64,000 nucleotides of DNA, from assembly GCA_032718475.1 (NCBI GenBank), contig JAUCBJ010009116.1, positions 1 through 64,000 on the forward strand. Direction: 5' to 3'. The DNA is from Nemertoderma westbladi. Taxonomy: Eukaryota > Animalia > Xenacoelomorpha. Below, in pieces: positions 1 through 58,264 of this stretch (positions are counted from its first letter, which is position 1; the number at the start of each line of letters is the position of its first letter). The notes below the pieces were generated by a model that did not search any database, had not been told where the DNA came from, and saw nothing but the letters and a program-made list of their open reading frames with translations. Both the position numbers and the translations under genes were made by a program.

Positions 1-3000
1 TTCGTCTGTCTTTCTATCCCACACGATTCCCAATGCCTTCTGCTGAGATTCTGTTCTCTTAATCGCCATGTCCTGCCCTTTGGCTGTTGTGGGGTTATCC
101 ATGGTCGATTCTGGTTTCCTGTCCTCTATGGCTTTGATAAATTCTTCCGAACTGGATTGGAATTTGGTCAGGTTAAAGCCGGATCCTTTTAGGATGTCGC
201 GAACCTCGCGCCCTGTATCCAGTATCTCCTTAACCGTATTCCCAGACTCCATTCCGTCGTCTACGTAGAAGCCGCGTCGAATCATATCGACGGCCCTACT
301 GCTGTATCTATCTTCCTTCCCCTTTACTGTATCTCTCACCGCCATAGTCGTCGTGAATGAAGACGACTTGGCCCCCATGTTCTGTACTACCATCTTATAT
401 GCTGGTATTATCGGCGGTTCTTCTTCGCCGTTATACCATAAGAAGCGTTGACTGTCGCTGTCTTCTTCCGTTACACGGACTTGGTTGAACATGCCTTCTA
501 TGTCACACGTGAAGGCGTGTTTCCCATTTCGAAATCTAAGTAACACCTCTATGCCCGAATTGTAAATGTTTGGGCCTTCTAACAGGTAGTCGTTTAAGCA
601 CTTTCCGTCGGTCTTTGCCGATGCGTCGACTACCATCCTTAGTTTACCTTTCTTTGGATCTAAAGCCACGTGCAGTGGCAGGTAATATGTTCTATCCGTG
701 TTCGGCTCGTCGACCGGTAACTCCACGGCCCATCCTTTCTCGACGTACTTCTTAATCGTCCTGTGGATGTACTCATTCTTCTCGGGGCTCCGTTTTAGTG
801 TTTGTTTCAGCTTGCGGAGTCTCGTGAGTACCATCCCCCTATTGTCGGGTAACGGTATCTTCGGTAGTTTCCATACCATTCCTATAGTATACCGTCCCTC
901 ATCGCACGTCATTGATTCCTCCACGCTTTGTAATGCCTGTTTGTCTTCTACCGAGGTCCCGACCCCGGTTTCTTTCAGTCCCTCGAAATCTTGTCTGAGC
1001 AGTCTTTTGAGCTGCTCCTCTGCTCCCTCGTCACTCATTTCCTGCATTGTTCCCGCGAACATGCATCCTGATGTCTCCGACATCCTAAATGGTATCTTGC
1101 TCTTGATTGGACCACTCAGTGTCCACCCGAATGGTGTTAATATGGCCACCGGGTCACTCTGCTTGTCTTCGCCGAAGACCGTTTGCATTCTTTCGTGGGC
1201 TGTTGGGCAGTCCATACCTACTATGATGGATACCTTCCTAACGTCCACGTCTGGGATTGAGAAGTCAATGTTGTCCAGGAATTTGTACTGCTCAACCTCG
1301 ATGTTGGTTGGCCGCCTGGCATTGATATTAATTGACTCTATCACTTGAATGGGGTCGATAGTTGCCCCATAGTCGCATCCTGGTGCCACTGCTGCAATTG
1401 CGCACCGTCCTGTCCTCATCTCCAGGATCTCATCTTTGCTAGAGATGGTTGTTACCGCCATCCTGCTTGGCCTCGTTCTCAATCCTATCTCCTCGGCCAC
1501 CCATTCCTCGACTAATGTGAAGGCAGCTCCACTATCAACCAGCATTAGTGTTGTTACTGATCGATTGCCTTCCCCGATCACTCGTACTGGTACTACTCCA
1601 AGTAGCACCGTTCCTCTCTTCTTCGCCCCTACTGTGCTCGTCGCCATCGTTTGGCCTCTCCTTTGACCAAATTTCATTGGCTTCTCCTTACACTCCCTTG
1701 CTCTATGTCCACTCATTACACATCGCGAGCAGATTTTATTGCTGAACGCATAATCTATCTGATCTTGCCTAGGTAGCGCCTGCCAGTACCTGCAGTTCAT
1801 AGTTTGATGAAGCGCATTTGCGTGTAGCTGACATTTGCTCTTTGGGTCGTAGCCCTCTTTATAGAGTGCATTGCGTATCGCAGTTGCGTTCGTGCCAAAG
1901 TCCCTACTATTCTTATTGTTTGGGTTTTGCCGATTGGACGTACTGGGGTTATGTTTATTCGTGTTATTATTATTTCCCTGTCCGTTCCATGATGTTGTCT
2001 TATTCTCGGCTAGCTGTGGACTTGCAGTCCCCTGCGTCGCTGCATATGGCAATGATTGCCTAAGTTTCGGTAATGCGTTCGATGTGTTGTGCTCTGGTTT
2101 CGGTCTATGGTAGTCTGTCTTCGGTCCCTTTCCCAGGCTGTCTTCGCTATAGACTGGGTCAGTTATTAGTTCAGCCTCGTAGTTTAAGAAGTTTGACATT
2201 TCTTCTAAACCCGGTTCCGCACCCTTCTTATCTCGAGTAGAGAAGGCGATTTTTCTCCACTTGTTGCGCAGCCAGTTTGGTAGTGCCTGCGCTATCGTGG
2301 TGATGTTGTTGGACGCATTGAGCTCGTACGGCGCGTCTAGCGTCTTCAGCACGATTAGCGCCTTTTCGACTTTGTTAGCGAACGTCTTAATGCTAACGGG
2401 ATTATCCTGTAGGCCACCCGATGTTATGCCTCTCAGCGTCTGCCTGATGATCTTGGCCGGGTGCCCGTATTCCCTATCCAGTGCCCGCCATGCTGTCGTG
2501 AAGCCGCCCTCTATTCCCTGATATTGCCTCACGATGTCGTATGCTGGGCCTCCCGTGTACACTTGTAGATACTTTAGGCACTCCGCCTGCGTCAAGTTTT
2601 TTGTTAGTATTTCGTTACTATACATTCGCCGAAACTGTAAATATTCTTCCGGCCTACTCCCATCGAACTTGAATGGTTCCACGGGTGGTAACTCGATCCT
2701 CGTTTTCAACGCATCGATCAACGTGGCCATCCCTATCGCCTGCGCTTCCAATGGATTCGATGGGTGCTGCATAGTTTCTCCTGTCTGGTGCGTTCCGTCT
2801 GTCCTATTTCTTGACTTTCTCTGGCTTGGGTATGTCATCGGGGGTAGCGGCCCCCTCCATATATCTGTGTCACACGACCTGTTTTCGTCCAAGGGTCTCG
2901 TTGTTCTTGCTACTATCGGGGTATATTGTTGATATTGTGATGGGGGAATGTCACCCTGTCCCCCCCCCACCGGTATGTTTGGTACTGGGGTTGATGTTAA

Positions 3001-3840
3001 TATGTTGGGGCCCATGCACCTATCCGCAATAATTCCCCCCTCCCCTGGGTATATGTTATGTCCCTGCATGCTGTAGTCATACTGCTGTGCTGGTACCGGT
3101 ATAGGCCTATCAGCTTCTGGCCTACCCGCCGGTATGTATTCCGCGACTTCCGGGTTTAATCCCGTTGTCCACGCTATCCTATCGTCTACATTGCCTCTCT
3201 CAGTATGGCCTACGGTATGTGCAGTAAGGCCTACAGTATGTCCTACAGTCTGCATGTGTTGTTCGGGATCGAAGTTTATTCTTCTCGAATAATCCTCCCC
3301 GCGGCTACCGTATTCTCGATCGATAGGTGTATTCCGTCGGAAAGTTTCTCTTCGACCCCCCCCTCTACTGTTCTCATCTTCGTACCGGTACATCGCGTAC
3401 CCCTCTCTCGGCGCGTAGTGCGCCTCGCCGGGTCGCATCTCTCCGGGGCGACGGCAATCTCCCGGAGTCCGACCCCACTGACTCTCCGTTCTCATCTCAA
3501 CCACCGACGGCTCGCTATCCGTCCTCGCTCTTCTATCGTTCGCGGCGATACCTCTACTACTGTCTTCTCTTCTTCTCCTTTCAGTGGAGTATTCCCGCTC
3601 GTGAGATCTCTCGTCGACCTCCCGGTTAAACCCCACTGTTCTTCTTCCCTCTTCTGATCGGGCTCGACGCTTCGTCCGCCCTCTTACGACGTCAACCTGT
3701 CTCTCTCTGCTCGGTCGCACGCCGCTGGGGATACTCGCAATCCCCCTATTACTTTCCGTCGCCGGTTGTTGCGGTTTACCTATTTCGGCCCTCGCATTAT
3801 CCGCTGACGGCTGTGGGACACTCTCTGCCCCCCCCCCCCT
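1..3840 (-). CDS. A1 gag-pol polyprotein, main frame (Gag core, zinc knuckles, protease, RT); runs off the window
   Basis: I read this frame as open from about 3840 down to 2641 (RIELPPVEPFKFDGSRPEEY). It is in register with the homologous A2 ORF 60696-63998. It is missing from the ORF track, presumably because no stop lies inside the window. Confidence 0.85.
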
Positions 3841-4634
3841 TTCGCCGCTAACTCGCTGTTGTGGGGTTCTCGTAGCCCCCCCCCCCATTCGCCACATCCA
3901 ACTTCGCCACTCCTCACCCCGCTACTATTTCCCTCTCCAGTCGACACATCAAGCCTACCGCGGTCGGGTCTATTCACCCCCGCCTCTCTCTCTGCTATTG
4001 CGTGGCCTACCAGGCCCTCTACCCCCTGCCTACTAACTATGTGGCCTACCAGGCCCTCGCTGGGTCTACCCAACCCAGCCACTCCCTGCCTACCAACTGC
4101 GTGGCCTACCAGGCCCTCGCTGGGTCTACCTAACCCGGCCACTCCTTGCCTACCAACTACGTGGCCTACCAGGCCCTCGTCTGTCTGACCATACACGCCC
4201 GACGTATTTACATTAATAGCACCCGTATTGGAAACGGAATTAATTTGTCCGTTCGAGATAAAATCACTTGGATTATATTGCGCGACTACACTATCTGAAT
4301 TATTTTGTAAATTCGGGCTTGGATCATTATTTAAATTATTTGGATTATTCTGCGTAATCGCGTTATTTAAATTATTTTGTAAGTTCGAATTTGGGTTATT
4401 ACCCTGATTAATTGGATTATTTTGCGTAGCTACATTAATATTAGAATTATTTTCTACATTAATACTAGGGACGTTCTGATTTAAATTTAAATTACTACCA
4501 CTAGGTAAAGTATTTCCTGCAATAAAGGTTTGATTAGAGTTGTCCCATACGGTACTATTAATATTAACCACGTCTACTGTACCATTATCATTATTACCCC
4601 CCCCCCCCCCCCACCCCCGCCCGTACGGTCGCAC
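3780..4634 (-). CDS. A1 gag N-terminal extension, segment 2 (Asn-rich, 20-aa GLVGHAVGRQGVAGLGRPSE repeats)
   Basis: ORF track. It is bounded by G homopolymer runs (4597-4620, 3828-3839) where the frame shifts, and the TVWDN motif is conserved in A3. Confidence 0.7.
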   Translation of the reverse strand: MRPYGRGWGGGGGNNDNGTVDVVNINSTVWDNSNQTFIAGNTLPSGSNLNLNQNVPSINVENNSNINVATQNNPINQGNNPNSNLQNNLNNAITQNNPNNLNNDPSPNLQNNSDSVVAQYNPSDFISNGQINSVSNTGAINVNTSGVYGQTDEGLVGHVVGRQGVAGLGRPSEGLVGHAVGRQGVAGLGRPSEGLVGHIVSRQGVEGLVGHAIAEREAGVNRPDRGRLDVSTGEGNSSGVRSGEVGCGEWGGGLREPHNSELAAKGGGGQRVSHSRQRIMRGPK

Positions 4635-6199: not shown

Positions 6200-6309
6200 T
6201 TATCTGGGGCGGCAGCTGGTTTTAGTTACTTTTACAGTTTAGCTAGGGCGGCAGCTCGATTTTAGTTACTTCTACAGTTTAGCTAGGGCGGCAGCTCGAT
6301 TTTAGTTAC
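6200..6309 (-). repeat. About three copies of a ~40-bp unit at the PBS position of A1
   Basis: Sense unit GTAACTAAAATCGAGCTGCCGCCCTAGCTAAACTGTAGAA starts at the first base after the LTR. Confidence 0.85.
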
Positions 6310-6837
6310 TGTGACGGGATCCAGGAGGGATCCCGATTTATCCGGTATTTTAGTTTACGCGTCCCCGCCGTGTATAAAGAGTAAACGAAACGGTGAATGA
6401 GTTCTGATGTTCGGTGTATAATAATCGATGGGTATAGATATAGATATAGATATGTGGAAGGCGGGATACGGTAACTAAAGTCCCGTGCTCCCCTATCTAA
6501 ACTAACTAACCTAAGCTAGCACTACTGCACTTGAGATAACTGAATTACTGATTAATAGGTTACTGATTATATTACACGGTTGGCCTAATTACTACCTAAT
6601 CGATGCCTTGCCCCCCTCTGATTGGTTGATACCCTTGTTGGCGCCCCGTGGAGTGTTCCCGTTCACTCCACCTGTTCTCTCTGGGTTAGGGGTTTGGCCC
6701 CTGACCCTCTATTGTGTGCTTCCTTCCCACTCTTATTGGGATGGCACGAGTTGGTTAACTATCCAATCTCGTGGCTCCCAATATTGCTTATCGGCTTACA
6801 ACTTTATGGGGTGTTAGCGGGATTGGATAAGCTAACA
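6310..6837 (-). repeat. 5' LTR of A1 (528 bp, sense TGTTAG...GTCACA)
   Basis: TGT...ACA termini and homology to 57728-58264. On the sense strand it has a CCAAT box (accaatcag), a TATA-like gtaatataat and an Inr-like ttcagtt. Confidence 0.93.
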
Positions 6838-9911: not shown

Positions 9912-11083
9912 TGTAAAAGCTTTTGCGGATATACTCAGTCCCCCTCGCCCGCAAGATACCGTTATAGGTGTTTTAACGGACATAAAAGTCATTCTTCGAT
10001 ATATGTGCTTTGGTGGACATGGTAAGGCAAAAAACCCGCAATGCGTAAAATACCCTGGCACAGCTTAGCCTTGATGATTCAGATTACGACATCTAACAGC
10101 TGGTTGCTGACATGGAAACGGCCATTGGACACATGGTTCTTTGTTTAGCTTAACAGCCAATCAGAGCGATTTTTTCTGTGGATGTGGAGATATTTGGCCG
10201 ATCGTGCTAGGAGTGTTCAGTCTTACTGTTTTTCTTGATACTGTTGTGTTGTTTCTATCTAGGCCAGGAACACCGGCTCTAGAGTCAATTCGTTTCAGAC
10301 TTTAGAAGAAACATTAGTAGGCTTAAGATTATAGAGCGTATAACTGTTATCAGTTCATAACTTGTCATATCATATCTTAACCTACCGTCTTAATGCTTTT
10401 TACTGTTGTCATATTTTGTATCAGTTGGTTGAATATTATTTGGAGAACATTTATAAAGAACCCAAATTTCCCAATTTTCTTGATACACTACAGGTTAGAG
10501 AGACAGGTTACATATAGCGATTGCGACTTATATTATTGTGGTTTGTAGTGAATTTAATGCTATTTGATAAGCACTACATGAGTCAGTTGCTGTTCTCTTT
10601 ATATATGATAAAATTCATTGACGGTCGGCAAATAAGTGAGCAGTATTGTGTGTTACCGGTAGTGTGCATGATTGTGACTGATAACTAAGCATTTCCTAAA
10701 GAATGCGCCTCATACGTGAATCATAAGCCTTACCGACTTACCGTTGTGATTAGTATAAGTCATATCTCTGTTTACCTAGATAGAGCGCCACGTCCTAAAG
10801 GAACTGTTAATATTTCCCGAAAGTGAATAATATTAGTCAGAAATTATTTATTAATGATCAATCGAATAATACAGTAAGCTTACACTGCAATAATAATCTA
10901 AGCCCTCAGAATCCAGTCTCCCGGGTATATCCAGCGGGTGAATGGACGCGCACTAGGCTGGCTTCTGCTAATGTTGTGTTTATTGGTATTAAATATTTGT
11001 CAATTTCTAAAGTCTATTTATAAACCAAAAGACATATAAATTTTGGCAGGTTAAACTGCTAAAGGTCTTCAAAAGCGCGTACA
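9912..11083 (+). repeat. 5' LTR of B1 (~1.17 kb)
   Basis: TGTAAAAGCTTTTGCGG start and GCGCGTACA end, homologous to the other B LTRs. CCAAT box at about 10157 and Inr-like TTCAGTC at about 10215. Confidence 0.9.
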
Positions 11084-11152
11084 ATAACAGTTATTGTCTT
11101 TATTGCAGTAAGCAATAAAGTTGAAAGTACCGGTCGACCGGTAAACCTGAAC

Positions 11153-11390
11153 CGGTACTGCTGTAGGTCCGTAGGCCCAACTGCCAGAATCGGTACTGCT
11201 GTAGGTCCGTAGGCCCAACTGCTTGAATCGGTACTGCTGTAGGTCCGTAGGCCCAACTGCCAGAATCGGTACTGCTGTAGGTCCGTAGGCCCAACTGCTT
11301 GAACCGGTACTGCTGTAGGTCCGTAGGCCCAACTGCCAGAATCGGTACTGCCGTAGATCTGTAGGCCCAACCGTCCTAACCGGTACTTCC
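11153..11390. repeat. 38-bp tandem repeat (~6 copies) in the B1 leader
   Basis: Unit CGGTACTGCTGTAGGTCCGTAGGCCCAACTGCCAGAAT at 11153, 11191, 11229, 11267, 11305, 11343. It is not amplified in B2. Confidence 0.95.
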
Positions 11391-11607
11391 AGTATAAGTA
11401 CATTAGTATTATTCGGTTTTGATTATTGTATACCGGTAGGTCTTAGTATTTAATCAGGGACTGCAGCCCTGGTTTTTTATTGAGACTTTACTTATTTCTG
11501 TCAGTTTTATTTCCTAGTAAGTTAATATTGAGCTGAAGACGTGTAAGTCTGCTCAGATTGTTCAGATAATTGTAGGCCGGACTGTTGTTGGGTTTGGAGG
11601 GATTACG

Positions 11608-12130: not shown

Positions 12131-13421
12131 TTTATGCGATTATTCGCAACATTCATGTCCCCAAGTTTATTCCTACAGTAATTGTGCTTGTTACACATAC
12201 CGTTATAGTTAAATTAACCCCGGTACTACACGGGCTGCTTGGCGTAGGAAAAGACTGGTGACTTTGTGCTTCGGTCACTCCAGCAGATGCCGTGGTTCTT
12301 TTAACTGTTCAAGTATATTTAACTACTGATTATTTGTTGTACCAGTACTTGTACCTAATTTAGGGTTTAGTGTACAGTGCTTTCCGAAAGTAATTAGTGT
12401 GTAGGCAGTATATTTGTGTTGTAAAGTGGTTAATAGGCACGTTGGATCTGGTAGTCCGCGGTAATTAACTTCTAGGTAGGAACACTCCATGATACATAAC
12501 GTAGTACCTATAGCGATACGGCTATAGGTCATCAGGCGGTGGTATTTTCCTATCTGGACAGTGCAATATATTTACTACTACTTATTATTTTCAAATACCG
12601 TAGTACCCTGTCCGTTGTAATAAACAGAATTCTAACCCTTCGTTAGACTGGTTTGTAGACTTCCTGTAAAATTACCCTAAAATTTCGTACGTAATATTTT
12701 TGTTGTGTTTAATTAGAGAATTAATCTCACCCGTATCGTAAGTAATTTGTAGTATTAAGTAACTTAGGTAAATTAGAATAATCTGTTTTAGTGTCCCATA
12801 AGTAGCACTTCACTGAGAGCGCACAGCTTCTGTGTAGTGACTTCCCCAGAAATAATAACATTTATTTCAAATATTGACAACACCCCTTTTAAACGGGTAT
12901 ATATCTATTATAAATCAACTCAAACGATTTATAAATAGTAGGCCTGCCATACAACAACTAGGTCTCAATATCAGTTGGACTACTGCTTAAATAGCGGTAA
13001 TAAAGTAAGTTAAAGTAACCAAGTAACCCTAAAATATTCAGAAATTCAATTATTCTAAAATAATTGACATACCGGTATTTACCATAGGCTTATTATATTT
13101 ATTTCTATAAATTTGGGCTGAAATCATACCGGTACTCTGTAATTAATTCTAGTTCATAATTATACTTATATATACTATAAGTGTAAGCTGTATACCGGTA
13201 TTCACGATAGGCCTATTATATATTTATATATATTTGTGCTAAATTTATATACCGGTACTCTGTGACAAAACTAGTTTACAATACTTATATATATTATAAG
13301 TGTATACCGGTATTCTAATATACTGCAATAAATTACCGGTACTAGGCCAACGGTCATACTGAATTAATAGACTTGCTTTAACTGTAACTATAGCAGTAGA
13401 CATTCAACTGTATAGCTAAAC

Positions 13422-16400
13422 ATGTCTGACACCCAGCAAAACCTGTCAGACAGTCTAATCGATACAACCATCTGTGACACAGATAGGAGTGTGGAGCGAT
13501 TAAGAAAGGAGTTCAGCTCACCTCCTACTGAAAGAAAGGTCATCCCTCCAGTAGTAGTATCAGACCCTAAGCTAATCCAACACCGTAGGTCTATCATCGG
13601 CACTCGGGCCCAAGTCAAACGGAACCAGGAAGCAGCTGTCCAACAGCAGCAACATCCTAGTCAAGAAACTTGTTCCCAGCGATCAGATAGCTCCAGTAGT
13701 TCGGATACTGTAGAGCTGACCCCCGAACGCGGATTGCAGATGGCGGCTACAGCCTACTCGGACCCCCTTCTCACCCTTCCTGCCGCAGTACTAACTACTA
13801 TATTGATTGCGGTGGAAGAACATCAAGCCGATTGGGCGAGAAGTATGAGAGCGACCCAAGATAATTATGCGGGATACGCCAGGGAAGAATTGATGTCTAT
13901 TGTCGAGTCACAATGGAACTTTCCCGGACCCGGACTCCCGTTAGATTTGTCCGAAGCTACTTGGGAAGATATACACAGGATGGGAGTGGCTAAAGATACG
14001 ATGGATCCAGCTGTTTGGAAGAGGTCGGCAGCAGGATATGTGCAGGGATTCTTCGGCTCCTTAGAGCGATTGGAAGAACAATTGTTTCGACAACCCCAAG
14101 GACCTCAAGAGCAGGAAGAGCTGCTTTATCAAATACGTGAAAGAACCCTACGCATTAGACTAATCCTATCAGCCTTTGAGGAAACTTCCAAAAGAAGACA
14201 GGACACGTCGCTGCAGGTTGCTGTCAAAACTTGGTTCCAGCGGGTAGGTCTCAAAGTACAAGAAACGGACCAGTGGAAATCCCAGCTGTCTGAGAGACTA
14301 ACCTATGAAGAACCAACCGATGCCACCCTTTCTCAAGTAGAAGGCGAAGAGACCGCAGAGAGACCACGAACGAGAGACGCCATCGACATTTATCTGTCCG
14401 ACTATCAGCGATTCCTAGGAGACGAAGAGTTGAGGAGACGGCTGTCTGGTCTTTCCCCTAATAGTGAAGGAACCCAGCGTGTGTTAGACTCAATCGATGC
14501 TGAAATGTTAGCTGCTAACCAAGCTGAATTTGATAAAAAACTCCGCCTCACTAAGAGTCCAAGAAGAACAGGTAAAGAAAAGGCGGATAGAGGACCGAAA
14601 GGCAGCTGCAGTAACAGCGGCAATGGCCGAAGTGGAAGCAGAAAGAAAAGCAGCAAAGGCAGTGGCAGAAGCAGAACGGAGAGCCTCTGAGGAGACTACC
14701 CAACTGGAGTTGGAAAATCTGCAAGAGACGCAAGACAACATAAATAAACAGTTAACTGCTAGTCACATGCAGATGATGAGAAGATCTACTCCCAAACGCC
14801 AGGGATATACGTCATCGGAGGAAAGCGAAACCACCGATCCTGAAGGCGGAGGAAATAGATCTCGTCTAAGCAGGCGTAGAAAAACATCTTACCGTCACAA
14901 ATTGCCTGATTTGCCCCCAGCTGTGAGAAGGCAACTAGCTAGCACAGACTTAGGTAGAATAGAACCTACAGACCAAATTATTAAGGTCAAAAAACTCCCT
15001 ACTATAGGGAGTATAATGAGCCTGAAATAATTAGGCCTGTCGTTACCAAAGTCACTCCTGCGCTAGAGACCCCTGTACTTCCAGAGCTTAACTCTAAGTT
15101 CCCTTTACACAGTACTACACTGCCTGTACCTGGTAGAACAGTCCATGAGAATATCCCTGTCCTGGAAGCTGAGAGAGAAATCAAAGATTTGTCTCCCGCC
15201 GTCCCGCGTCAGCCCGCTACAATGTTGGCGACTCCCGCTTCGGCGGTTGAGTGGGTAGAGGAGGGACGGCGGGGGATGAATCTCCTGCTCGGACAGATGC
15301 AGGAGACTGTCCACCAACTTAAGGGAACAGTAAGGGAAGGTAGGGCCGAATTGCAAGAAGTGCAGCAAAGTATCGCGCTAGAACGCGTCAAATTAGTCAA
15401 CATACAAAAGGGTATACCCATACCCCCTGTAACATTGTGTCAACCTGTTAGGTCTGAAGTATTACATGCGCAAGGTGTGGAGCCTACACGCATCTATACT
15501 GCTAGTGAAGTAGAAACTCCTATAGCAAACCCTATTAGGGGTGATTATAAACCTGTTGTTGATGATATTCCCTATAGACCTGATAATAATCCGGGAAATT
15601 TATATACCAATAATTCGATATTAAATAACACGATGGCCCAAGAAAGCTTTACGCGTCAGATGGCTAGAACAGAAGCCCGCCAAGCGGTCAAAGTGGGAGA
15701 AATCGTCAAATTCAATGGAGATGAGATGAAATGGTTACCTTTCAATGAATATTACAAAGATAGCATACAGAACTCTGTACTATCTAACGGAGAGAAACTT
15801 AGATTCCTCATCAAGTGCTTGGAAGGACCTCCCAAGTTAATGGCGTTAAAGTTTATTGGACATCCAGATGGATTAAGACAAGTTTGGGATATATTAAACA
15901 TCAGGTATGGTAACAAGGATAACATAGCTAAGTATTTGTATGCAAAATTAGTAGCCTCCCGAAAGTTCCTTAGTAGCGGGATTATAGAGTTTTCCGATGA
16001 GATTCAGGAGATCTGTAGACAATTGGATTGGTTAGGTAAGTCTCATGAATATCAGAGTTCCATGGTTATTGGAGCCGTAGTCTCTACTTTACCAAAGGGT
16101 GGAGTATGTACACGCTGGGACAAGAAAGTGTTGTATATGAATGAGCAGCAACGACGAGGCCCTACCATGGCTGATCTCATGTCCTTCTTAGATAGTGAAG
16201 TAAAATTACAACTCATAAAGCAGTCCAGAGAGAAAACATCGGAAAATAAGGTAAGTGAGAAACCCGTTTCTAGGAGAAGGGTAACACCAGTGTGTTATAC
16301 TGACGACGGCGAAAGCCAAGCATCTCAAGAAGAGGACAGCGGGAAAGACACAGCAAAATCTTACTATGACAAATTTTACTACGTTAACAAAACCTCAAAA

Positions 16401-17990
16401 GACGTAAGTAAATACAAGGCTCGAACCAACGATAGGAGAGAACAGGTTGCCAAGACTCCTCTTCAGTCTCCTAAGAGAATTCACGGAAGAAAGCCCGAAG
16501 AAAGAACGAGAGTGCATAACGTTACCCAAGGTAAAGTGAGTAACATCAAACCAAAATGTGCGCTGTGCGACGGGCCCCACCGTTTGAGTGTGTGTGCTGA
16601 ATTCCTAAAGAAATCCTTGGTAGACAGACGTGAAGTCATGTGGGATAAGCGGTTATGCTATAATTGCCTCAGACAAGGACACCAACGGCGAACCTGTTAC
16701 TCCGACGTAAAGTGTGCAAAGTGCGGTGCGAAACATCACATCTTGTTACACAGTGAATTCGAACGAAACAACCCGAGTCAGGTAAGTGAGCCCGAACTAC
16801 ATGTCCAATTCAGTGATGTAAATGACACTGATCAAGAATCTGAGATGGAAGGATTCTATACGGACGAATTCTCCGACGCCAACGAATCCTGTTACCTAAT
16901 AAATACCGCAGTGTATCGAGCACTTACGTATGAAAAGGACACCGATAATGAGTTCCCCCCAACTACCTTTGACAGACAACCATCTTGGAAACCTCCAACT
17001 TCCAACGTAGGAATCAGAGAATTTCCTGTAGTGCAGGTAAGAGTTCACGGTCCTAACAAAAGTTACATAGTGAACGCCCTCCTTGACTCCGGCAGCACAG
17101 GAACATTCATCGATCAAGAACTAGCCGAAGACATCTTTGCTGGACAACCCAAATTCCGAACTAAGTTGAATATGTCAGGAATTATGCAGGTTTGGAAATC
17201 TACCATAACGGCAGATTACTATGTAGGTGCGTTGTCCACCCCCCAGGATAAATTAGGAGAACAAAGTATAAGGTCAGTAAAAATGGTGGCTATAAAGAAC
17301 TTCGCTACTACCCAAGTAGAACCTTATAACTGGGACGAGGACGAGAGCATCCAGCAGTTTAAGATACCTCGATTCCACACAGATTATCCTGGAGTGCAAA
17401 TACTCATCGGCCAAAACGCGCATGAGGCGCTAGAGACATTGGAGAAACGGCCTGCTCAACCACAGCCACTACAAACCTATGCGGTAAGAACTAGAGTAGG
17501 TTGGTACTTCACTGGCCCTTCCCGTAGAACTCTCAAAGAGAGATTACCTCAACAACAGGTATACCAAGTAAAGGAATGGGAAGTGGAGAGCAGTGAGGTG
17601 GACGAACTAACTGAGGGAACACCATACTCCTCAGATAATGACGATATTAACTCCAATGTAGATAAATGGAGACATTGCCTTGGGACGATTAATCCAGCCG
17701 ACATCGCTTCCAGAGGAGCAACTCCTCAAGAACTGATAGATACTCCAGGCTGGTTAGGTGGATCCGACTTCTTAAGTAAAGAAGAAGAAGAATGGCCTCC
17801 TCATCTTACCACGGCGGAGATTAGACAGGCCAAGGGAGCGGAGAAAGTAACACAACAACTCAATCGCCCAGCTGGTCGTTTATGTTTACTGGAAAGAGAC
17901 CGAAAACTGTCCGGAAACTATGGAAGGCAAGATACTCTTCCTACGACCACTTCCCTAATCCGACAAATATCTAGGGACTCCATAACATAA
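13422..17990 (+). pseudogene. B1 gag-protease polyprotein (two frameshifts, ~14535 and ~15015), RT/RNaseH/IN deleted
   Basis: ORFs 13422-14690, 14530-15030 and 15189-17990. Motifs: KFNGDEMKWLPF Gag core; CALCDGPHRLSVC / CYNCLRQGHQRRTC / CAKCGAKHHILLH; ALLDSGS. These are followed directly by WRHCLGTINPADIASRG and the terminal RPAGRLCLLE. Confidence 0.9.
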
Positions 17991-21005: not shown

Positions 21006-22225
21006 TGTAAAAGCTTTTGCGGAATTGCCCGGTTATTTTCCCCGTAAAGTACTCTGTAGTTGGTTTAGCAGGCATAAAAGGCCGTGTCATTGCTGTACCG
21101 GTGTTTTTAGGGGACATAAAAGCTATTTCTTCTGTATGTGTACTTTAGAGGACATAATTAGCAATTCTATGACGCAACGCCCTAGATCCTCTTGAAACAG
21201 TGTCGTTACTATGACGACAGCTAACGGCTGAGCTTTACATGTGTAGCTTGCTCAGAGCCTTGCCTTGGTTCTTTGTTCTGCTCAGCTCAAAATGACGACA
21301 TCTATCAGCTGTGTCCACGTGGAGCTCTTTGCCATTCGACCAATCAGAGATTCCCTCTTTGTGTAAAAGCTGTACAGCAGAATTACAGGGTTCAGTACTG
21401 ACGTTTCCCCCACGCCTAGAACACCGGCCGGGGAATGTTTTCTGACATTAGAGCGTCTTTAATTATAAGATCATCAAACGGTTATCACGGTTTTGCACCT
21501 CGGCATCTGATTAATCACCCTGACGTAAACTGCTTTTCGCCGCATTATTTACTGCTATTTACTGTGTTGTTAATTGTATCGTTCGTTTACATATTATTAT
21601 TGGGAAGAATATTGATAACGATCCGAAAACCCAATCTTCTTGATACACTAAGGTTAGAGAGACCGGTTACATATAACAATTTGCGACATACATTATCGTG
21701 GTTTGTAGTGAGTTAAATGCTACTTAATAGGCCCTACAAATGTCGGTTGTTATTCTCTTTATATATGATTAAAATCAGTGAATGTCGGCAATTCAGTGTG
21801 CAGTTGTGTGCAATAGTCTGTGTGTACTTGACCGAGTAACAAAGCATTTCCTAAAGAATGCACTTTGGTGATCTATAAGACATACTGTTGTGTATAGTGT
21901 AAGTCATAGCTCTGTTTAAATAGATAGAGCGCCACGTCCTAAAGGAACTGCTAATATTTCCCGAAAGTGAATAATATTCGTCAGAGATTATATATTAACG
22001 ATCAATCGAATAGTACGGTAGGCCTGCACCGCAATCAAATTAAAGCATCCAAATCCAGTCTCCCGGGTATATCCAGCGGGTGAATGGTCGCGCACAGACT
22101 GGCTTTGGCTAATGTTAGAATTATTATAGGTGTTCAATACTTGTCATAGGCTGGAGTAGATTTATAACCTAGAAGACATATAGATTTGGCGGGTTAAACT
22201 GCCAAAGGTCTTAAAAGCGCGAACA
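21006..22225 (+). repeat. 3' LTR of B1 (~1.22 kb), preceded by PPT-position motif CCCATTTTCTGGGAGCGG
   Basis: TGTAAAAGCTTTTGCGG...AAGCGCGAACA, clearly diverged from the B1 5' LTR. Confidence 0.9.
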
Positions 22226-23710: not shown

Positions 23711-26277
23711 CTGCATGAATAAACCCGCAACATTATTTAGGTTAAGTATAAAGTGCTAATGGCACATGGAGGTCAGGTTATAACGTGGGTCCGCATCCAG
23801 GTTACAACCGGGCACCGTGTTTATTGTTTGGTTCTAATTAAGGTTTAAAAAAATTATAGTGTAAGCAGATCCACTCCACTACACGCCACCTACCGGCAGA
23901 ATTGGGAGGTAGACTGATTTACGAATCAGTTAAGGTATGAACATTGCATACCAGAGAATGTAGGAAGCAATTTTGGCCAGGAGATAGTTTAACAACCCAT
24001 ATCAGGGAAGAGAGTCTAACACAGGGCAGGAGGGGGGGCATGGGATTGTAGGAGTGGAATAAGGCGACCTATGCGAGGGCCACAACTGGCGATCATGTAT
24101 CTGTATCGATTGGTTGGTCAACCTAAGTGTTAGGACTGTGTAATACATTCCCCTCAATTTTCCATATATATACTGTCATCATATGATTACTAGTTCAGTT
24201 GGTTATTTTATTGGTGTAGTAGTTACATAGTTTTCCACCGTCATCTGTTATATACTGATTATGTGTTCGCGCTTTTAGATCTTTAACAGTTTAACCTGTT
24301 AATTTACGTGTCTATGATGTCTGACAGCCCGTACAAAATATGAACACAGCCGAAGCCAGTCTAGCACGGCGTACGACCCACAGGAGGGGGTGGGAGATTG
24401 GATTCTATGGCAGAGAGAGGTGTAGGCTACTTTGTATTATTCGATTGATCTCTACTATATAATTTCCAAAAACTATGTTTATTTTCAATGAAATACCAAC
24501 AGTTCCTTTCAGGTGCTATGCTTGAAATACAACGCAGAGTTATGACTTATACTAATTACAACGGATGGGCATGAGAAAACGCAAATGTTTACATTATTTA
24601 GGAATGTACTATTAATCGTTCACACTCACGCAACTGGAATAGTACTGAAACACACTAATTTGCCGACTGTCACCAATTTTACTCACATATTTTAGGAGAA
24701 ATTTAGATCACATACGTTGGAGACTATAAAACAGCATGAACTCATACCAACCACTGTATTCTGAGCCAAGCAATTGTTACTGGTATTCCCCCCCCCCCCC
24801 CCCCCCCCCCCCCCCACCCCGCTTACCTCAATAATCAATAAAGCCAAGAGAGCTACCGGTTATTCGTGAGTATTCTCCAAATATTAGCATTAATCAATCA
24901 AATAGGTTACAAACACAGTACAGTATATTATATCAGCATAAAACAGTATATAGTATGCGGCAGCGGCAGTGGCAATAGTCAGATGTGACGGGAAGTCAGG
25001 ATGTGCCACTGGTTAATCACTCCAGTTGTCAGATGGTGAAGAAAAGAAAGGTCGAGTGGATTTGTATTCTGTGATCTCTCTGGCCACTGAGAATCGCAGA
25101 ATGCGACAGGAAGAGTGGAATTTGCCGTATTGCGTCATTTCATATATATCACAAGGGCAGGAAATCGAAAATCGCACTGATTGGCCGAAACATACATAAC
25201 ATGGGCCCTACGCATAAAGAAACAGCTGGCAGATTTTGTCATTGATAACCCGATACCAAAACAGATGCTAGAGGGCATAAGTCTATAAAACTCTATAGTT
25301 CTATAAAATAATGCTGACACTTTTAGAGTAGTTCGCCAATTGCACAAAATGCCACATTTTTGCCACAAAACCTTTAACACCACTCCCAGAAAATGGGACT
25401 TAAGTCTATAAAATATACATCGAGTCACAGTTTCTTAATAAAATAACTACTCTAAACAATCAATCCTTCTTTCTAGAACGACGTTTATGGAGTTTTTTAA
25501 ACCTTTGCGTAGTCGTAGTCTTTTTCTCCACAGCCCGAGCCACTTTATTAGGAGGGCTATAACTCCTCGGAGAAGGGTGCAACACAATTGCATCAGAAGG
25601 GTTGGGGTTGCGGTCAGTGTATCCGCCGGTCGAGGTACCTGGTTGGTAAATATCCATAGGAGGTCCTCTTCGTTCCTGTGGGGGAACTTCGATATCGACA
25701 CGTTTATCAAAGGGCCAAAGGGGTCGAGGGCGCACAACCTTTAAGGCCCGTCTCAGGAAGCAGCTTGCACTGGTCCCGCTTTAGTCATCTGCATGACTGC
25801 CATTGGTAGGCCGTTAGTGGTGAGGAATTTCCGGGGTTTCACAGTTCTCGCCATATACTCATAAGATCGTCGGTGGACTTCTTGCAGTTCGGGGTGCGCA
25901 TTTATAACTCTCTCACCGTATTCCAGGTCTAGGCTAATGAAACTAATCAAATTGTACGAGTCTAGATTATTTGGGTTAATATTTCTCAAATATTTTCTGA
26001 CATATTTGGTGGAAATACACTCACCAATGCGTTTGAGTAATTCGTAACTGGGGATACGAGTTTTCTTTTCGATTAGGGGAAATAGATAGGGGTGAAATGC
26101 GCATACTCCCTCATAGGCTCATTCCTGGATAGTAACGATGGCGCGACTCGCAGTGAAGATCTGCACTAGCTTCCCAAGCTCGTATGTATCGAAATACAAT
26201 TAACTCGTCTACGCATTCAATGTCTGGGCTAAAAGGGCAATCCCAACTAGCGTGTCCCTTCAGTTGGCAGTAATGAC

Positions 26278-27345: not shown

Positions 27346-30300
27346 CACTAAAACTCTCCTGAGCCATCGTATTGTTCAATATCGAATTGTCCAAATATAT
27401 ATTTCTAGGATTATTGTCAGGCGCATATGGGATATCATAAGTTAGTCTATTAATATGATTAGTATGTTTTGCTATAGGAGTTTCCACTTCACTAGCCGTA
27501 TAGATGCGTGTAGGCTCTACACCTTGTGCATGATATGATTCAGACCTAAGAGGTTGAAAGGCAGTTACAGGGGGTGGTGATATACCCCTTTTTATATTTA
27601 CTAATTTTTCACTTTAAAGAGCGATTCGTTGCTGTACTTCTTGCAACTCGATTTTATTATCTCGTACTGTTCCCTTCAATGAGCCGACAGTACCTTCCAA
27701 ATCCTTCAACTGGTCCGCGGACCTTGATTTATTTTGGGCCAACTGCCTAAGCAGTTCGTCCATCTCCCTCTGCCCTTCCTCCATCCACTCGACTGCTGGT
27801 ACGGGAGACGCCAACGGAGCTGCAGGATGGCCCATCGGGGCGACGGGGGGCAACCCTTGCCCGAACAATTTTCGTTCCATGGGCTTACTGCCACTCTGTG
27901 ATACAGCGATTTGGCTACTGGTCAAGGGAGAATTTGTACTTTCTAAAAGGGAATCTAGAATCAGGTTCAAACAGTAAGGGATTCTCCACTAATGGAGTAG
28001 ACTTAACGACAGGCCTAATTACTTCAGGCTCGTCTATAATGGTGGGAAGCCTATCAGATTCCATCACCTGAGTTATTAACTCACCAGATTTTAAATCTGT
28101 GCTCGCCAGTTCTATCTCACTGGAGGGGGAAAGTTGGGCAACTTGCTCATCTACGTCCATTTGAGGTGGATTTGTAACTCTTACATTCTGATTCTGTCAT
28201 CGTACCTTCATCTGAGGAGGTAATAAATCCTTGTCTATTAGGAGTTGAACGACTTCTGAGTTGTGCCTGAGCCATGTGCGTTTTCGTAGTAGTTCTTGTC
28301 TTTTTTTGGATAGTCTATTGTTCCAGTTGAGCTAACGCTTCAGCTGAAGCTGCTTCAGCTTCTATCTTCGCCTTTTCCGTAGCTGCTTCAGCCTCCCTCT
28401 TCGCCTTTTCCATAGCTGCTTCAGCTTCTATCTTCATCTTTTCCATAACTGCTGCAGCTTCTATCTTGGCCCTTTCTGTAGCTGCTTCAGCTTCTCTCTT
28501 CGCCTTTTCCGTAGCTGCTTCAACCTCTCTCTTTGCTTTCTCCGCAGCTTCTTCAGCCTCCATCATCGCCGTTGCCTCAGCTGCTTCAGCCTCTCTCTTA
28601 GCTTTATCGTCGATTAATCTCCGCTTCACTTCTCTAGCATTCTCTAATGCGAGAAGTGCTCCTTCGTCCTCTTTAACCTGGTCAGCGGCTAACATTTCCA
28701 AGTCCAGTACGTCTAGAATATGTTGGGCTGCTTCACTACGTGGGTGTAGACCAGCTAGACGTCTCCTTAACTCCTGGTCTCCTATGAATCGCTGGTAATC
28801 CAACAAATAAATGTCGACTGCGTCTCTCTTCGGTTGCCATTCGAGTGCTGCCTCGCCTTCTCCATAAGAAAGATTGGTATCAGTGGATTCCCCGTAAACG
28901 AGTTGATCTGCTAACTGAGCTTTCCACGTGGTTATTCCCTGAACGTTGTCATTCACTCGTTGAAATCAGATTCGTACTGCCACCTGCAGTGAAGTATCCT
29001 GTCTCCTTATTGAGGCTTCTTTGAATGCTTACAGAATTAATCTAATCTTTAATATCTGCTCCCTCACTTGATACAGAAGTCATCCTTGTGCTTGAGGTTC
29101 TAACTGTCCTCGGAATAGCTGAGTTTCCACTCATCCTAATGAGTTAAAGAATTCCAGGACATACCCAGATGCCGACCTCTTCCACACCGTTGGGTCTCTG
29201 GTATCTCTAGCAACTCCTAGCAGATGTAGATCTTCCCAAGGAACCTCAGAGAGGTTAAAGGGTATTCCGGGTCTGGGGAAGTTCCATTGTGTTTCTACCA
29301 TGGACTCTAATTCTTCGCGCGAGTACCTGGCGTAATTCTCCTTTGTTGATCTCTTATTCTGTATCCAATCGGCCAGATTTTCTTCTATGGCTGGAAGAAT
29401 TTTTTGAGTGAGCATTCCTCCAGGAAGAGAGAAGAGTGGGTTGGCGTTGACCACTTCCCCCATTCTCGGACCAACCTCCGAAGGTGTTAGTTGCTCTGTG
29501 CTGGAGCAGTAATTACTGGATTGCGTCGGGGTAACTTCCCAGTCAGTTTGACGTCATACTATATAATCTCCCAAAACTCGTAGGAACTATAACATCTATT
29601 AACCAGTCAGAATCCCTCGCCAACTGTGATCCCATCACAGTGGAAAACTATTGCTATCAAAGTTGAAACTTAGAAGACATCATGGAGAAGTTGAACCCAG
29701 CTGCCACCATCGACCTTAACTCCAAAGCGACAATGCCAACAATGAACGATGAGCGAACAACACTGAGCACCCCAGGGTTCGGATGGGGGTGGAAGTCTGC
29801 TGGGCACTCCCAGGGAGAGAGCTGTAACGATTCGGGAGGCGGCGACACAAAGATATCAGGCACACTACACCGGATCTGCCAGCAGATGATGGATCGGTTG
29901 GAGAGGAGGAATGCGGACATGTACAGGAGGAAGAACGCATGCGACAACAACAGCAACGAGCGTAATGGAGCCTTCAGCCAACCAGTGCAGTGGCTACAGG
30001 TGGCGAGTGGTCCACCGGAATGGTGATGGGAGGGCCGACAGTATGACGCCGGATGAAGAGCGATGAGGAACGAATAGAGGAGGAGGACATCACAAAGTGC
30101 GATTGTCTGAGAAGGGGCTACAATGCGGCCTGGAGGCTCCTCAAAAACGCAAAGGAGGAAGGACGAGTGGACCAGGATAAGTTGAACCGTAAACTCGGTG
30201 AGTGTGATAAACATTTTAGATATTTAGCTCGATTCGAGCAGGGAGGATTAGTGAACCAGAGGGTGAGGGAGGTCGCCACCCAACTGTATGAACTGAGGCA

Positions 30301-37982: not shown

Positions 37983-39155
37983 TGTTCGCGCTTTTAGACC
38001 TTTAGCAGTTTAACCTACCAATTTTAATTGTCTTTTGTATATCAATTATTTAATGTACTGAAGTTACATCAGCCGAAGCCAGCCTGTGCGCGACCATTCA
38101 CCCACAGTTAAGGGAGACTGGATTCGGATGCTTTGATAGTGATTGCAGTGTAGACCTACTGTATTATTCGATTGATCGTCAATATATAATCTCTGACAAT
38201 ATTATTCACTTTCGGGGAAATATTAACAGTTCCTTTAGGACGTGGCGCTTTAAGTATAAAACAGAGTTATGACTTATACTAATCACAACTGGATGGCTAC
38301 TGAGTTTCGTAAAAAGCGCATTCTTTAGGAGATGCTTTATTAACCTTCACACTACTTACACGACTTCACACCAGTTCACACTACTGCGCACTGATCTGCC
38401 AACCGTCACTGAATTTGATCATATATAAGGAGGATCGCAACTGACACATGTAGGGATTATGAAATAGCACAAACACAATTCACACAAAAACCACTATAAT
38501 GTAAGTCGCAGTTGCTACTGGTAAACATGTTCCTCTAACCTTTAGTAATCAAAGAGATTGGGGGTTTTATGATTATTCATCGGTATTCTCCAAATATATC
38601 AGCAATATATACCAACATAACACCAATTAATAACAGAATCAAATAATGCGGTGAACAGTCAGTATGTGTAGTTGAATTGCGTTGCATAGTGCCGCGGTGT
38701 GGCGATGTTTCAGTAGTTGAATCATTAATAGTTTTACGTTCTTTTAATCAAAGCCATCTGATGTTTCTGATGTTTAGGTCAAAGTCTGAAACTTCCACAG
38801 AAGTACAGAAGAATCCTAAGCCGGTGTTCTGGGCTTAGAAAAGATACACACTGACTGAATTGCGTGGGTTTCTGTAGGCACTGTCCAACACAAAAAGAAA
38901 ATCGCTCTGATTGGCTGAGCCGAACAAAGAACAAAGAGAGATTCAGGTTCCGCGTTGGCAGTAAATCAGCTGACAGATTGCGTCATCTGAGTCATCTTTT
39001 AGAGTATTAAGCGAATTGCGGCAGAATGGCTAGTTATGTCCGCTAAAGCACGCATACAGACATAACGGGTAAAAATGGCTTGTTATGTCTGCTAAAAGCA
39101 CCTACACGGTACATTGCGGAGAAAATGACTGGTTATATCCGCAAAAGCTTTTACA
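37983..39155 (-). repeat. 3' LTR of B2
   Basis: Direct repeat of 48378-49546, preceded on the sense strand by CCCATTTTCTGGGAGCGG. Confidence 0.97.
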
Positions 39156-46398: not shown

Positions 46399-48377
46399 GT
46401 TTGATTGTACAGTTGAATGCCAACTACTATAACGAAAGTTAAAGCAAGTCTAGTAATTCAGTATCCACTGAAAGCCTAGTAATTAATTACCGATACTGTT
46501 ACTCAGTGTAACGTGATATATATATAATATATTAGAATACCGGTATACACTTATAGTATATATATAAGTATTATTACAGACTAGGGTTTGTCACAGAATA
46601 CCGGTATATAATTTCAGCATAAATATATATAAATATATAATAAGCCTACTGTGAATACCGGTATACAGCTAACACTTATAGTATATATAAGTATGATTAT
46701 AGACTAGAATTAATTACAGAATACCGGTATATAATTTCAGCATAAATTTATAGAAATAAATAGAATAAGCCTATCGTAAATACCGGTATGTCAATTATTT
46801 TATAATAACTGAATTTCTGAATTTTAGGGTTACTTTTCTTTACTTTATTACTGTTATTAAGCAGTAGTCCAACTGATATTAAGACCTAATTGATGGATAA
46901 CAGGCCTACTATTTTATAAATCGGTTTGAGTTGATTCATAATATATATATACCCGTATAATGGGTTTTGACAATATTTGAAATAAATGTTATTATTTCTA
47001 GGTAAGGAGTCACTTCACAGAAGCTGAACGCTCTCAGTGGAGTGCTACTTATTGGACACTAAAACAAATAATTCTAATTTACTAAGTTACTTATTACTAC
47101 AAATTATGTACAATTACGGGGTGAGATTACAATCTCTAAATAAACACAAAAAAAAATTACACGTACAAATTTTAGGGTAATTTTACAGGAAATCTACAAA
47201 CCAGCCTAACAAGGGGTTAGAATTTCTGGTTATTACAAACAGACAGGAAACTACGGTATTTGAAAATAATAAAGCAGTAGTAAATATATTGCGTTGTCTA
47301 GATAAGAAAATACCACCGTCTGACGACTTATAGTCTCTAGCTTTACAGCTCTATAAGTACTACGTTATGTACCCGGAATGTCCCTACCTAGAAGTTAATT
47401 ACCGCAGCCTACCAGAGCTAACGTGCCTATTAACCACTTTACAACACAAATATACCACCTACACACTAATTACCTTCGGAAAGTACTGTACACTAAACCC
47501 TAAATTAGGTACAAGTACTTATACAACAAATAACCAGCAGTTAAAATACTTGTACAGCTAAAAGAACCACGGTATATGCTGGAGTGACTAGAGCATAAAA
47601 TCACCAGTCTTTACCTACGCCAAGCAGCCCTGATGTAGTACCGGGGTTAATTTAACTATAACGGTATGTATAACAAGCACAATTACTGTAGGAATAAACT
47701 TGGGGTTGTGTATGTTGCGAATAATCGCATAAACTCTGAATAATAAATATTACGCTACCCGTACAGACTACACAAACAAAATACAGACCAAACGCTGGCA
47801 GACTACTATCAATCCTAAATAAACTACAGTATATGCAGACTCCGAAATGGTTAGTTAGTATGCGTTCTAACCGAGTAGTACGACTTATTCCTTCGGAGGG
47901 GATTTACCTAACAACACTGGATGCCCCCACCTTCCTAACTAGCACTTTATCGGACAGACACTCTACACACACTGCAATCTCTTCAGACCTAACAACAGCC
48001 AGACAACAATCCAGCCTACAAATTATTTATACAATCTGAGCAGGCTTACACGCCTTCTGCAGTTCTGCTCAATATTACACTTACAGATAAATAAAACTGA
48101 CAGAGATAAGTAAACCATACAAAGGAATAAGGGATGATCATCCCTAATCCCCTAACAGCCTACAATATACAATATATCACAATCGAACTAATACTGGTAC
48201 CCGCAAGTACCGGTTCCGGTGGTTAGGTAGTTAGGCCTACAGGTTACCGTCCGACCGGTACATTCGAATTTATTTGCCTACGTGCAATCAAGAGTTTAAA
48301 ACTATTAATGTTCTTACCAGAACATTAGACAAAATATATTTATTGCCTACACTGCAATCAGAAACTGAAACTATTAA

Positions 48378-49546
48378 TGTTCGCGCTTTTAGACCTTTAG
48401 CAGTTTAACCTGCCAATTTTAATTGTCTTTTGTATATCAATTATTTAATGTACTGAAGTTACATCAGCCGAAGCCAGCCTGTGCGCGACCATTCACCCAC
48501 AGTTAAGGGAGACTGGATTCGGATGCTTTGATAGTGATTGCAGTGTAGACCTACTGTATTATTCGATTGATCGTCAATATATAATCTCTGACAATATTAT
48601 TCACGTTCGGGGAAATATTAACAGTTCCTTTAGGACGTGGCGCTTTAAGTATAAAACAGAGTTATGACTTATACTAATCACAACTGGATGGCTACTGAGT
48701 TTCGTAAAAAGCGCATTCTTTAGGAGATGCTTTATTAACCTTCACACTACTTACACGACTTCACACCAGTTCACACTACTGCGCACTGATCTGCCGACCG
48801 TCACTGAATTTGATCATATATAAGGAGGATCGCAACTGACACATGTAGGGATTATGAAATAGCATTCAATTCACACAAAAACCACTATAATGTAAGTCGC
48901 AGTTGCTACCGGTAAACCTGTTCCTCTAACCTTTAGTAATCAAAGAGATTGAGGGTTTTATGATTATTCATCGGTATTCTTCAAATATATCAGCAATATA
49001 TACCAACATAACACCAATTAATAACAGAATCAAATAATGCGGTGAACAGTCAGTATGTGTAGTTGAATCGCATTGCGTAGTGCCGCGGTGTGGCGATGTT
49101 TCAGTAGTTGAATCGTTAATAGTTTTACGTTCTTTTAATCAAAGCCATCTGATGTTTCTGATGTTTAGGTCAAAGTCTGAAACTTCCACAGAAGTACAGA
49201 AGAATCCTAAGCCGGTGTTCTGGGCTTAGAAAATATACACACTGACTGAATTGCGTGGGTTTCTGTAGGCACTGTCCAACACAAAAAGAAAATCGCTCTG
49301 ATTGGCTGAGCCGAACAAAGAACAAAGAGAGATTCAGGTTCCGCGTTGGCAGTAAATCAGCTGACAGATTGCGTCATCTGGGTCATCTTTTAGAGTATTA
49401 AGCGAATTGCGGCAGAATGGCTAGTTATGTCCGCTAAAGCACGCATACAGACATAACGGGTAAAAATGGCTTGTTATGTCCGCTAAAAGCACCTACACGG
49501 TACATTGCGGAGAAAATGACTGGTTATATCCGCAAAAGCTTTTACA
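48378..49546 (-). repeat. 5' LTR of B2
   Basis: Sense TGTAAAAGCTTTTGCGG...CGCGAACA. Confidence 0.97.
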
Positions 49547-57727: not shown

Positions 57728-58264
57728 TGTGACGGGATCCAAGAGGGATCCCGGTTTATCCGGTTTTAGTTCACGCGTCCCCGCCGTGTATAAAGAGTGA
57801 ATGAGTTCTGATGTTGTTTGTCGTATATAATATGATATGCGGATATAGATATAGATATAGTATTGTCGTATATGGAAGGCGGGATACGGTAACTAAAGTC
57901 CCGGTCCTTCCCTATCTAAAACTATGTAATAACCTAAACTAGCACCGGTATTGCACTGAGATAACTGAATTGGTATTATTACTGCCAAGTGGCTATATTG
58001 CACGGTTGGCCTTGTTACTCTACCTAATCGATGCCTTTCCCCCCTCTGATTGGTTGATACCCTTGTTGGCGCCCTTTGGAGTGTTCCCGTTCACTCCACC
58101 TATTCTCTCTGGGTTAGGGGTTTGGCCCCTGACCCTCTTTGTGTGCTTCCTTCCCACTCTTATTGGGATGGCACGAGTTGGTTAATTATCCAATCTCGTG
58201 GCTCCCAATATTGCTTATCGGCTTATAACTTTATGGGGTGTTAGCGGGATTGAATAAGCTAACA
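57728..58264 (-). repeat. 3' LTR of A2
   Basis: Homologous to 6310-6837, with the same TGT...ACA termini. Confidence 0.95.

Follow-up and report, generated by a model that had tools for sequence, protein, structure and literature searches.

An LTR-internal site complementary to the PBS position in Bel/Pao elements of Nemertoderma westbladi, a candidate self-primer

What primes reverse transcription in an LTR retrotransposon whose leader carries no recognisable tRNA site? According to the ICTV profile, members of Belpaoviridae are primed by host tRNA, through an 18-nt PBS for tRNA-Arg or tRNA-Gly, and how they replicate is poorly understood (PMC8742986). A stretch of 64,000 nt from Nemertoderma westbladi (hereafter, the window) carries Bel/Pao-type elements, and in three of them, B1, B2 and A1, no such 18-nt PBS was found. 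The absence of a TGG-initiated tRNA PBS, noted in the preliminary description of this DNA, was confirmed for the first 12 nt of the leader in B1, B2 and A1, and extended to ten relatives. Priming without tRNA is known from Tf1, which uses the first 11 bases of its own RNA as a primer, cut by RNase H (PMC7175516, PMC4600332). The preliminary description had likewise proposed tRNA-independent priming in the present elements, based on complementarity between the PBS position and a site inside the LTR.

LTR retrotransposons of the window

The 64-kb window is packed with LTR retrotransposons of two families, A and B, together with a remnant, C, and every LTR in it has TGT...ACA ends. The features to which the text refers are listed below, where partner site denotes the LTR-internal site complementary to the PBS position.

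1..3921, minus strand: A1 gag-pol frame, continuing past the window edge
6301..6309, minus strand: A1 PBS position, 9 nt, first unit of a 40-nt leader repeat
6310..6837, minus strand: A1 5′ LTR, 528 nt; partner site at 6479-6471
9912..11083, plus strand: B1 5′ LTR, 1172 nt, TGT...ACA
10340..10350, plus strand: B1 partner site, predicted 3′ end of the self-primer
11084..11094, plus strand: B1 PBS position, reverse complement of 10340-10350, without TGG
13416..14690, plus strand: B1 extra frame 5′ of gag, without Pfam match
14985..17990, plus strand: B1 gag (DUF1759) and protease-like region, without RT
21006..22225, plus strand: downstream B-type LTR of another subfamily (LTR 21006); third partner-site variant at 21476-21485, its own PBS lying outside the window
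24264..25379, minus strand: B3 3′ LTR, the 5′ end of the element being missing
29485..29639, plus strand: element C, a 155-nt LTR-like stretch of an A-like remnant
37983..39155, minus strand: B2 3′ LTR, 98.3% identical to the B2 5′ LTR, with a 5-bp target-site duplication at both flanks of the element
48368..48377, minus strand: B2 PBS position, 10 nt; leader arm of a second helix at 48360-48347 (14 nt exact)
48378..49546, minus strand: B2 5′ LTR; partner site at 49125-49116, second-helix arm at 48548-48535
57728..58264, minus strand: A0 3′ LTR; same partner site as A1, at 57897-57889
59041..63998, minus strand: A0 pol in two frames, with protease, RT (YVDD), RNase H motifs and a shortened integrase

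Family A consists of A1 (5′ part, 6837 to 1) and A0 (3′ part, 64000 to 57728), both on the minus strand and 98.4% identical in gag-pol where they overlap. Despite this identity, the A1 and A0 LTRs (6310-6837 and 57728-58264) are just 86% identical. The family codes for a DUF1759 gag, a protease, an RT with YVDD, a Pao A17/RNase H domain and a shortened integrase. The pol order in A0 is PR-RT-RH-IN, with the protease motif at 341, YVDD at 765 and RNase H motifs at 951-1076, while the integrase zinc domain sits in the next frame; the catalytic motifs of RT and RNase H are kept. Family B (B1, B2 and B3) codes for an extra frame, a DUF1759 gag and a protease-like region, and its gag is 20-27% identical to that of A. 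B1 and B2 encode no RT, and B is also without IN. Pfam generated hits on DUF1759 (7.7e-11) and Peptidase_A17 (1.5e-40) for A, and on DUF1759 (1.2e-12 and 3.7e-13) without an A17 match for B. Judged by sequence, the proteins of both families are of Bel/Pao type and not of Ty3/gypsy (chromovirus) type; among the named Bel/Pao clades (Sinbad, Suzu, Pao, Bel, Tas, Dan, Flow), the elements may be Suzu/Sinbad-like. Extra frames without a Pfam match are located 5′ of gag in both families (13416-14690, 3780-6199, 28663-29388 and 30107-31054).

The LTR identity and the target-site duplication of B2 mark it as a clean insertion. B2 is embedded in a tandem array (36869-37982 and 49547-49728), and two further arrays nearby have units of 74 nt and 36/72 nt (50879-52169; 7236-7847). 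B1 is composite: the 3′-most 700 nt of its downstream LTR (21006-22225) are only about 79% similar to the 5′ LTR, and no target-site duplication was found at the B1 flanks. B1 (9912-22225) looks recombinant, with internal identity to B2 ranging from about 80% in the 5′ half to 92% in 3′ parts, and its two LTRs belong to different subfamilies. A minus-strand RVT_1 frame at 54063-57027 (E 1.1e-35), probably a non-LTR element, adjoins the A0 3′ LTR. Many diverged B copies occur in contigs of four public runs over 9800-11400 (11,178 contigs in X1). The 64-kb window contains no tRNA genes detectable by ARAGORN and no Rfam families.

Complementarity between the LTR and the leader

In B1, the 11 nt directly behind the 5′ LTR (11084-11094) are the exact reverse complement of 10340-10350 inside it; the preliminary description had reported this match at exactly these coordinates, and its statement that pairing stops precisely at the LTR boundary also holds, the flanking pair being mismatched on each side. 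In B2 (minus strand), 48377-48368 pairs with 49125-49116 over 10 nt, and the LTR site aligns with that of B1. The same arrangement, as had been asserted for family A, was found in A1 (minus strand), where 6309-6301 pairs with 6479-6471 over 9 nt. Dinucleotide-shuffled LTRs reached the observed length in 7/5000 cases for B1, 22/5000 for B2 and 10/5000 for A1, and random leaders taken from the internal region did so in 3/1500, 10/1500 and 7/1500, respectively; a control with random window positions was inflated because it included the LTRs' own opposite strands. The geometry is that required of a primer, the 3′ end of the LTR site pairing with the first base past the LTR. As the B1 site is a near-palindrome with 10 of 11 letters the same as the PBS position itself, B1 alone cannot separate an inverted from a direct repeat; B2 and A1 can.

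The two sites change together. B1 differs from B2 at positions 1, 5 and 10 of the PBS, and each change is matched in the LTR site (three double changes), which bears out the covariation proposed earlier for this pair, the one element pair that shows it within the window. Each leader fits its own LTR only: the B1 leader matches the B2 LTR over 7 nt and the B2 leader matches the B1 LTR over 6 nt. LTR 21006 carries a third variant of the partner site at the aligned position (21476-21485).

Three of the four window elements with a testable LTR-leader junction show the match. The exception, element C, has none (best 3-5 nt) and carries TGG at leader position 2; it is either a counter-example or an element with a deleted LTR, its LTR-like stretch being only 155 nt. 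A spliced partner was also considered for B1, B2 and A1 and was rejected because the best split matches (10, 6 and 8 nt) were shorter than the contiguous ones. The leaders carry tandem repeats. That of A1 (6309-6210, minus strand) has a 40-nt unit that starts at the LTR edge, with three repeats of the PBS sequence, and that of B1 has a 38-nt unit at 11146-11387.

A profile-free search yielded Bel/Pao RT-RNase H relatives with best identities of 30-39%; a word-based protein search found no relative at E <= 1e-20. Among 20 relatives looked up, the named ones were from sea urchins, an acorn worm and a pseudoscorpion, plus one bacterial protein record (P0118) that is probably contamination. Patterns derived from ten relative proteins identified 79 metagenome loci and 16 MAG loci. 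The Bel/Pao elements in the 16 prokaryotic MAG contigs (L081-L096) most likely represent host DNA contamination. Three viral-contig scans gave one weak locus, L001, which was left out of the counts. In an RT tree with the relatives, A0 sat on a long branch, outside the clade that the tested loci form, with a support of 0.30; labels from a scan blind to the LTR edge were not counted in this tree. As the position of A0 is unsupported and B is without RT, a common origin of A, B and the relatives is unproven, and A and B may have a separate origin or be a distant part of the relatives' origin.

The LTR edge was fixed in nine loci from a comparison between the element's own two LTRs, and in L074 and L022 by a sister locus. 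All 11 loci with an independently fixed edge, representing 10 families, carry the signature, with matches of 10-15 nt at offsets of 0-5 and TGG in none. With the offset limited to <=3, eight of the nine loci matched over 11-15 nt (random leaders, 0-4/1500). L079, which failed at this limit, passed at <=6 (10 nt, offset 4, 0/600), so that 9/9 loci and L074 matched at <=6; L022 matched at offset 0. Random leaders reached the match lengths of the relatives in 0-5/600 cases, this control covering the loci other than L022. Two other loci gave weak matches under the preset test, L037 with 9 nt (22/600) and L009 with 8 nt (66/600). Post hoc, L071 gave 11 nt (1/300) with an edge set by eye, and L009 gave 13 nt (0/300) only when any GT was allowed; both results are kept outside the 11. 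L049 (repeat in gag, not in the LTR) and L069 (unclear edge) were excluded, as were L060, L018, L028, L066 and L072, which belong to the same families as tested loci; the rest of the loci had no fixed edge.

The match is contiguous in three of the 11 loci (L019, L079 and L022), and in the other eight it spans an exon-exon junction, formed by removal of a GT-AG intron of 76-388 nt within the LTR. Their acceptors are U-rich, and GTAAGT is among the donors. L022 shares 90% identity with L017 and is missing precisely the 168-nt intron of the latter (L017:7051-7218; L022:7115), and its 11-nt partner is contiguous where L017 has the intron. L022 thus shows that the junction is made, whether the contig represents DNA or RNA, and that the contiguous form of A and B can be an intron-less state of the same system. 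MAFFT misaligned the LTR 21006 site and left the intron gap unopened, and its alignments were not relied on for these two comparisons.

Promoter motifs, RNA folding and candidate routes of priming

The predicted promoter and RNA structures of B1 are as follows.

10157..10161 and 10217..10221, plus strand: CCAAT box and Inr-like TCAGT of the B1 LTR, predicted promoter from motif matches
10494..11049, plus strand: candidate intron-like GT...AG stretch, its acceptor AG missing in one of four B LTRs
10878..10893, plus strand: predicted LTR arm of the second helix, pairing with the leader past the PBS position
11041..11064, plus strand: hairpin near the LTR 3′ end, kept with changed letters in all four B-type LTRs
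11100..11113, plus strand: predicted leader arm of the second helix, alternatively a local hairpin

A CCAAT box followed 50-80 nt later by TCAGT is common to B1, B2, LTR 21006 and A1, and A1 and LTR 21006 have a TATA-like word about 30 nt 5′ of TCAGT. The partner had been described as lying well downstream of TCAGT, and it does so throughout, ending at +133 in B1 and B2, +93 in LTR 21006 and +72 in A1 when counted from this motif. In the relatives, with the intron removed, a TATA box lies upstream of the partner's end by 135 nt in L019, 148 nt in L063, 176 nt in L071 and 60 nt in L088. The word A[AT]TAAA occurs 0-97 nt 3′ of the partner in 9/9 relatives (the value for L079 being from a discarded match); with their poly(A) signal behind it, the partner is placed in R. 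No poly(A) signal was found close behind the partner in A or B. The partner's end was also considered as a poly(A) site in B, as ATTATA/ATTAAA lies about 20 nt upstream of it in B1 and B2; this reading was ruled out, since A is without a signal there and the signal of the relatives is downstream instead.

The helix between partner and PBS position is present in the minimum-energy fold of A1 with a pair probability of about 0.35, as part of a duplex with about 39 nt on each side (-31.9 kcal/mol, 4/1000 shuffles) that adjoins a terminal hairpin. In nested folding of B1 and B2, its probability is 0.0, and imposing it raises the energy by 12 and 17 kcal/mol. The isolated partner-PBS duplexes are weak (-10.1, -6.6 and -7.3 kcal/mol), and extended duplexes do not exceed shuffles (87/1000 for B1, 716/1000 for B2). 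The second helix is exact over 14 nt in B2 (0/60 shuffles) and not beyond shuffles in B1 (8/60). As this helix encloses the PBS, the partner pairing would be a pseudoknot, which is outside a nested folding program, or would involve a second RNA.

The distance from the partner to the LTR end is 733-738 nt in B versus 44-203 nt elsewhere, and removal of the candidate intron at 10494-11049 would cut it to 177 nt. The 40 contig rows listed, out of 224, cover neither pairing site and have no joint at the intron-like stretch, and so speak neither for nor against it. Conservation in the B LTRs (10440-11083, aligned with B2, B3 and LTR 21006) is higher over the 3′ 650 nt than in U3 or around the partner, a pattern suggestive of another RNA element. 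Within the B1 LTR, a palindrome of 10 nt (10875-10884) overlaps the second-helix arm and is imperfect in B2; it could be a dimerisation site.

Taken together, these observations support the earlier proposal of tRNA-independent priming as far as sequence can, and the related families extend the pattern. The spliced partner of the relatives and the second LTR-leader helix of B go beyond that proposal. Self-priming in one form or another, with a long or a short primer, is very likely, and a long primer cut inside the RNA is its probable form. In the long form, transcription would start at the TCAGT motif, so that the primer would be a capped fragment of 70-130 nt (about 130 nt in B and about 70 nt in A). 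The LTR site would pair with the 9-11 nt behind the 5′ LTR, and a cut just 3′ of the partner site, made by the RNase H of the element by analogy with Tf1, would leave a 3′ end that reverse transcriptase extends into U5. Strand transfer would then use the portion of R that lies 3′ of the cut, and the two sites would stay matched through the copying of the primer end during plus-strand synthesis. In B, the second LTR-leader helix and the terminal hairpin would hold the PBS open, the primer pairing would take the form of a pseudoknot or of a pairing between two RNAs, and RT would be supplied in trans by an autonomous relative outside the window. In many relatives, the partner would be made by splicing of the LTR intron, A and B being the intron-less form. 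Were the RNA cut at the partner, only the downstream part would be copied into strong-stop DNA and the upstream sequence would come from the 3′ LTR, and in this way the LTR could keep its intron. The idea can be tested directly, as it places the primer ends at exact positions.

A wider proposal is put forward tentatively, and could nearly as readily hold as fail: a broad part of the Bel/Pao superfamily would have dropped tRNA priming for a long capped primer from its own RNA, cut internally, with splicing building the primer end in many families, A and B being intron-less, and B joining primer and PBS over a distance of 730 nt, either through a pseudoknot or from one RNA to another.

The principal alternative is a short, Tf1-like form of self-priming, in which transcription starts at the partner itself and the leading 9-15 nt of the RNA would serve as primer, the first exon being very short where the partner is spliced. 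We consider it unlikely, though deserving of some weight. It needs first exons of 3-9 nt in the spliced families, and exons of this length are unusual. The CCAAT and TCAGT motifs precede the partner's end by 70-130 nt, the TATA boxes of three relatives do so by 135-176 nt, and the A1 duplex reaches 30 nt upstream of the core, all of which fit poorly with a start at the partner, although the match is 11 nt in B1 and in seven of the 11 relatives, the same length as the Tf1 primer (PMC7175516).

The pairing may instead be real but serve RNA folding (packaging, dimerisation, translation or splicing control), with priming by another route. Other conserved helices around the PBS position in B and a B1 leader that can adopt either a local hairpin or a long-range helix favour such a role, which is nevertheless improbable given that the match lies 0-5 nt past the LTR edge, in primer direction, in 14 elements with different letters, and that the surroundings of the edge revealed no other primer site.

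Priming by a tRNA fragment or another host RNA, with the LTR match as a by-product, is very improbable. The PBS letters differ at 3/10 positions between B1 and B2, and freely among the relatives, always tracking their own LTR, and a conserved host RNA would not track a PBS that varies in this way; on the other side stand the TGG at leader position 2 of C and the half-tRNA priming that occurs in Ty1/copia lineages (PMC6317226). Chance in AT-rich sequence, for which one might cite the shortness of single 9-11 nt matches, the near-palindromic B1 site and the lack of separation from complement-only and reverse-only controls in a scan of 53 loci blind to the LTR edge, is hardly credible; the match recurs at one fixed position in sequences that are unrelated, which refutes it, and anchored tests gave 0.1-2% each in the three window elements and 0-0.8% in ten relatives.

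Comparison with known priming systems

The Bel/Pao survey PMC3118150 contains no occurrence of primer, PBS, tRNA or priming, the Sinbad paper PMC554778 contains none of PBS, tRNA or priming, and the accessible parts of PMC3601003 and PMC8220671 hold nothing on Bel/Pao self-priming. No report of a self-priming Bel/Pao element was found in the literature searched, most subscription papers, Repbase notes and supplements lying outside the search. If true, self-priming through an internal LTR site would make Bel/Pao a third superfamily with self-priming, make the onset of reverse transcription depend on host splicing, release the elements from control via tRNA supply, and explain why PBS-dependent annotation misses such elements.

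Cer7 of C. elegans, a Bel/Pao-type element, has reportedly been proposed to encode its own tRNA-like primer; this would be a tRNA mimic, unlike the LTR site considered here. U5-IR and U5-leader stems are present in retroviruses, whose primer is a tRNA, and in Tf1. Family B resembles them in having a terminal U5 hairpin and an LTR-leader helix enclosing the PBS, both being predicted folds.

With Belpaoviridae, the elements share the DUF1759 gag, the Pao A17/RNase H domain, the PR-RT-RH-IN order and TG...CA LTRs within 0.2-1.2 kb (PMC8742986), but B1, B2 and A1 differ in the missing tRNA PBS of the ICTV type; a self-priming branch, if true, would correct the family-wide host-tRNA priming of the ICTV profile. 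Family membership is decided by the proteins and not by this PBS trait. Self-priming has been predicted from sequence in the plant Tcn1 (gypsy) and TAR (copia) lineages, which places its emergence in more than one superfamily (PMC6317226, available part). These are plant elements of other superfamilies, and an internal or spliced partner is not mentioned in that part of the source.

Tf1/Tf2 and Tj1 of fission yeasts (Tf1/sushi, Ty3/gypsy) are similar in having a PBS complementary to their own LTR RNA over about 11 nt and no tRNA site (PMC7175516, PMC4600332). They differ in belonging to another superfamily, and the partner would be internal in A and B, judged by promoter motifs, and spliced in the relatives. 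Self-priming itself is known from other groups, and what is new here is an internal, and in relatives spliced, candidate primer in Bel/Pao. The predicted mechanism works like Tf1 self-priming in elements that are not members of the Tf1/sushi group.
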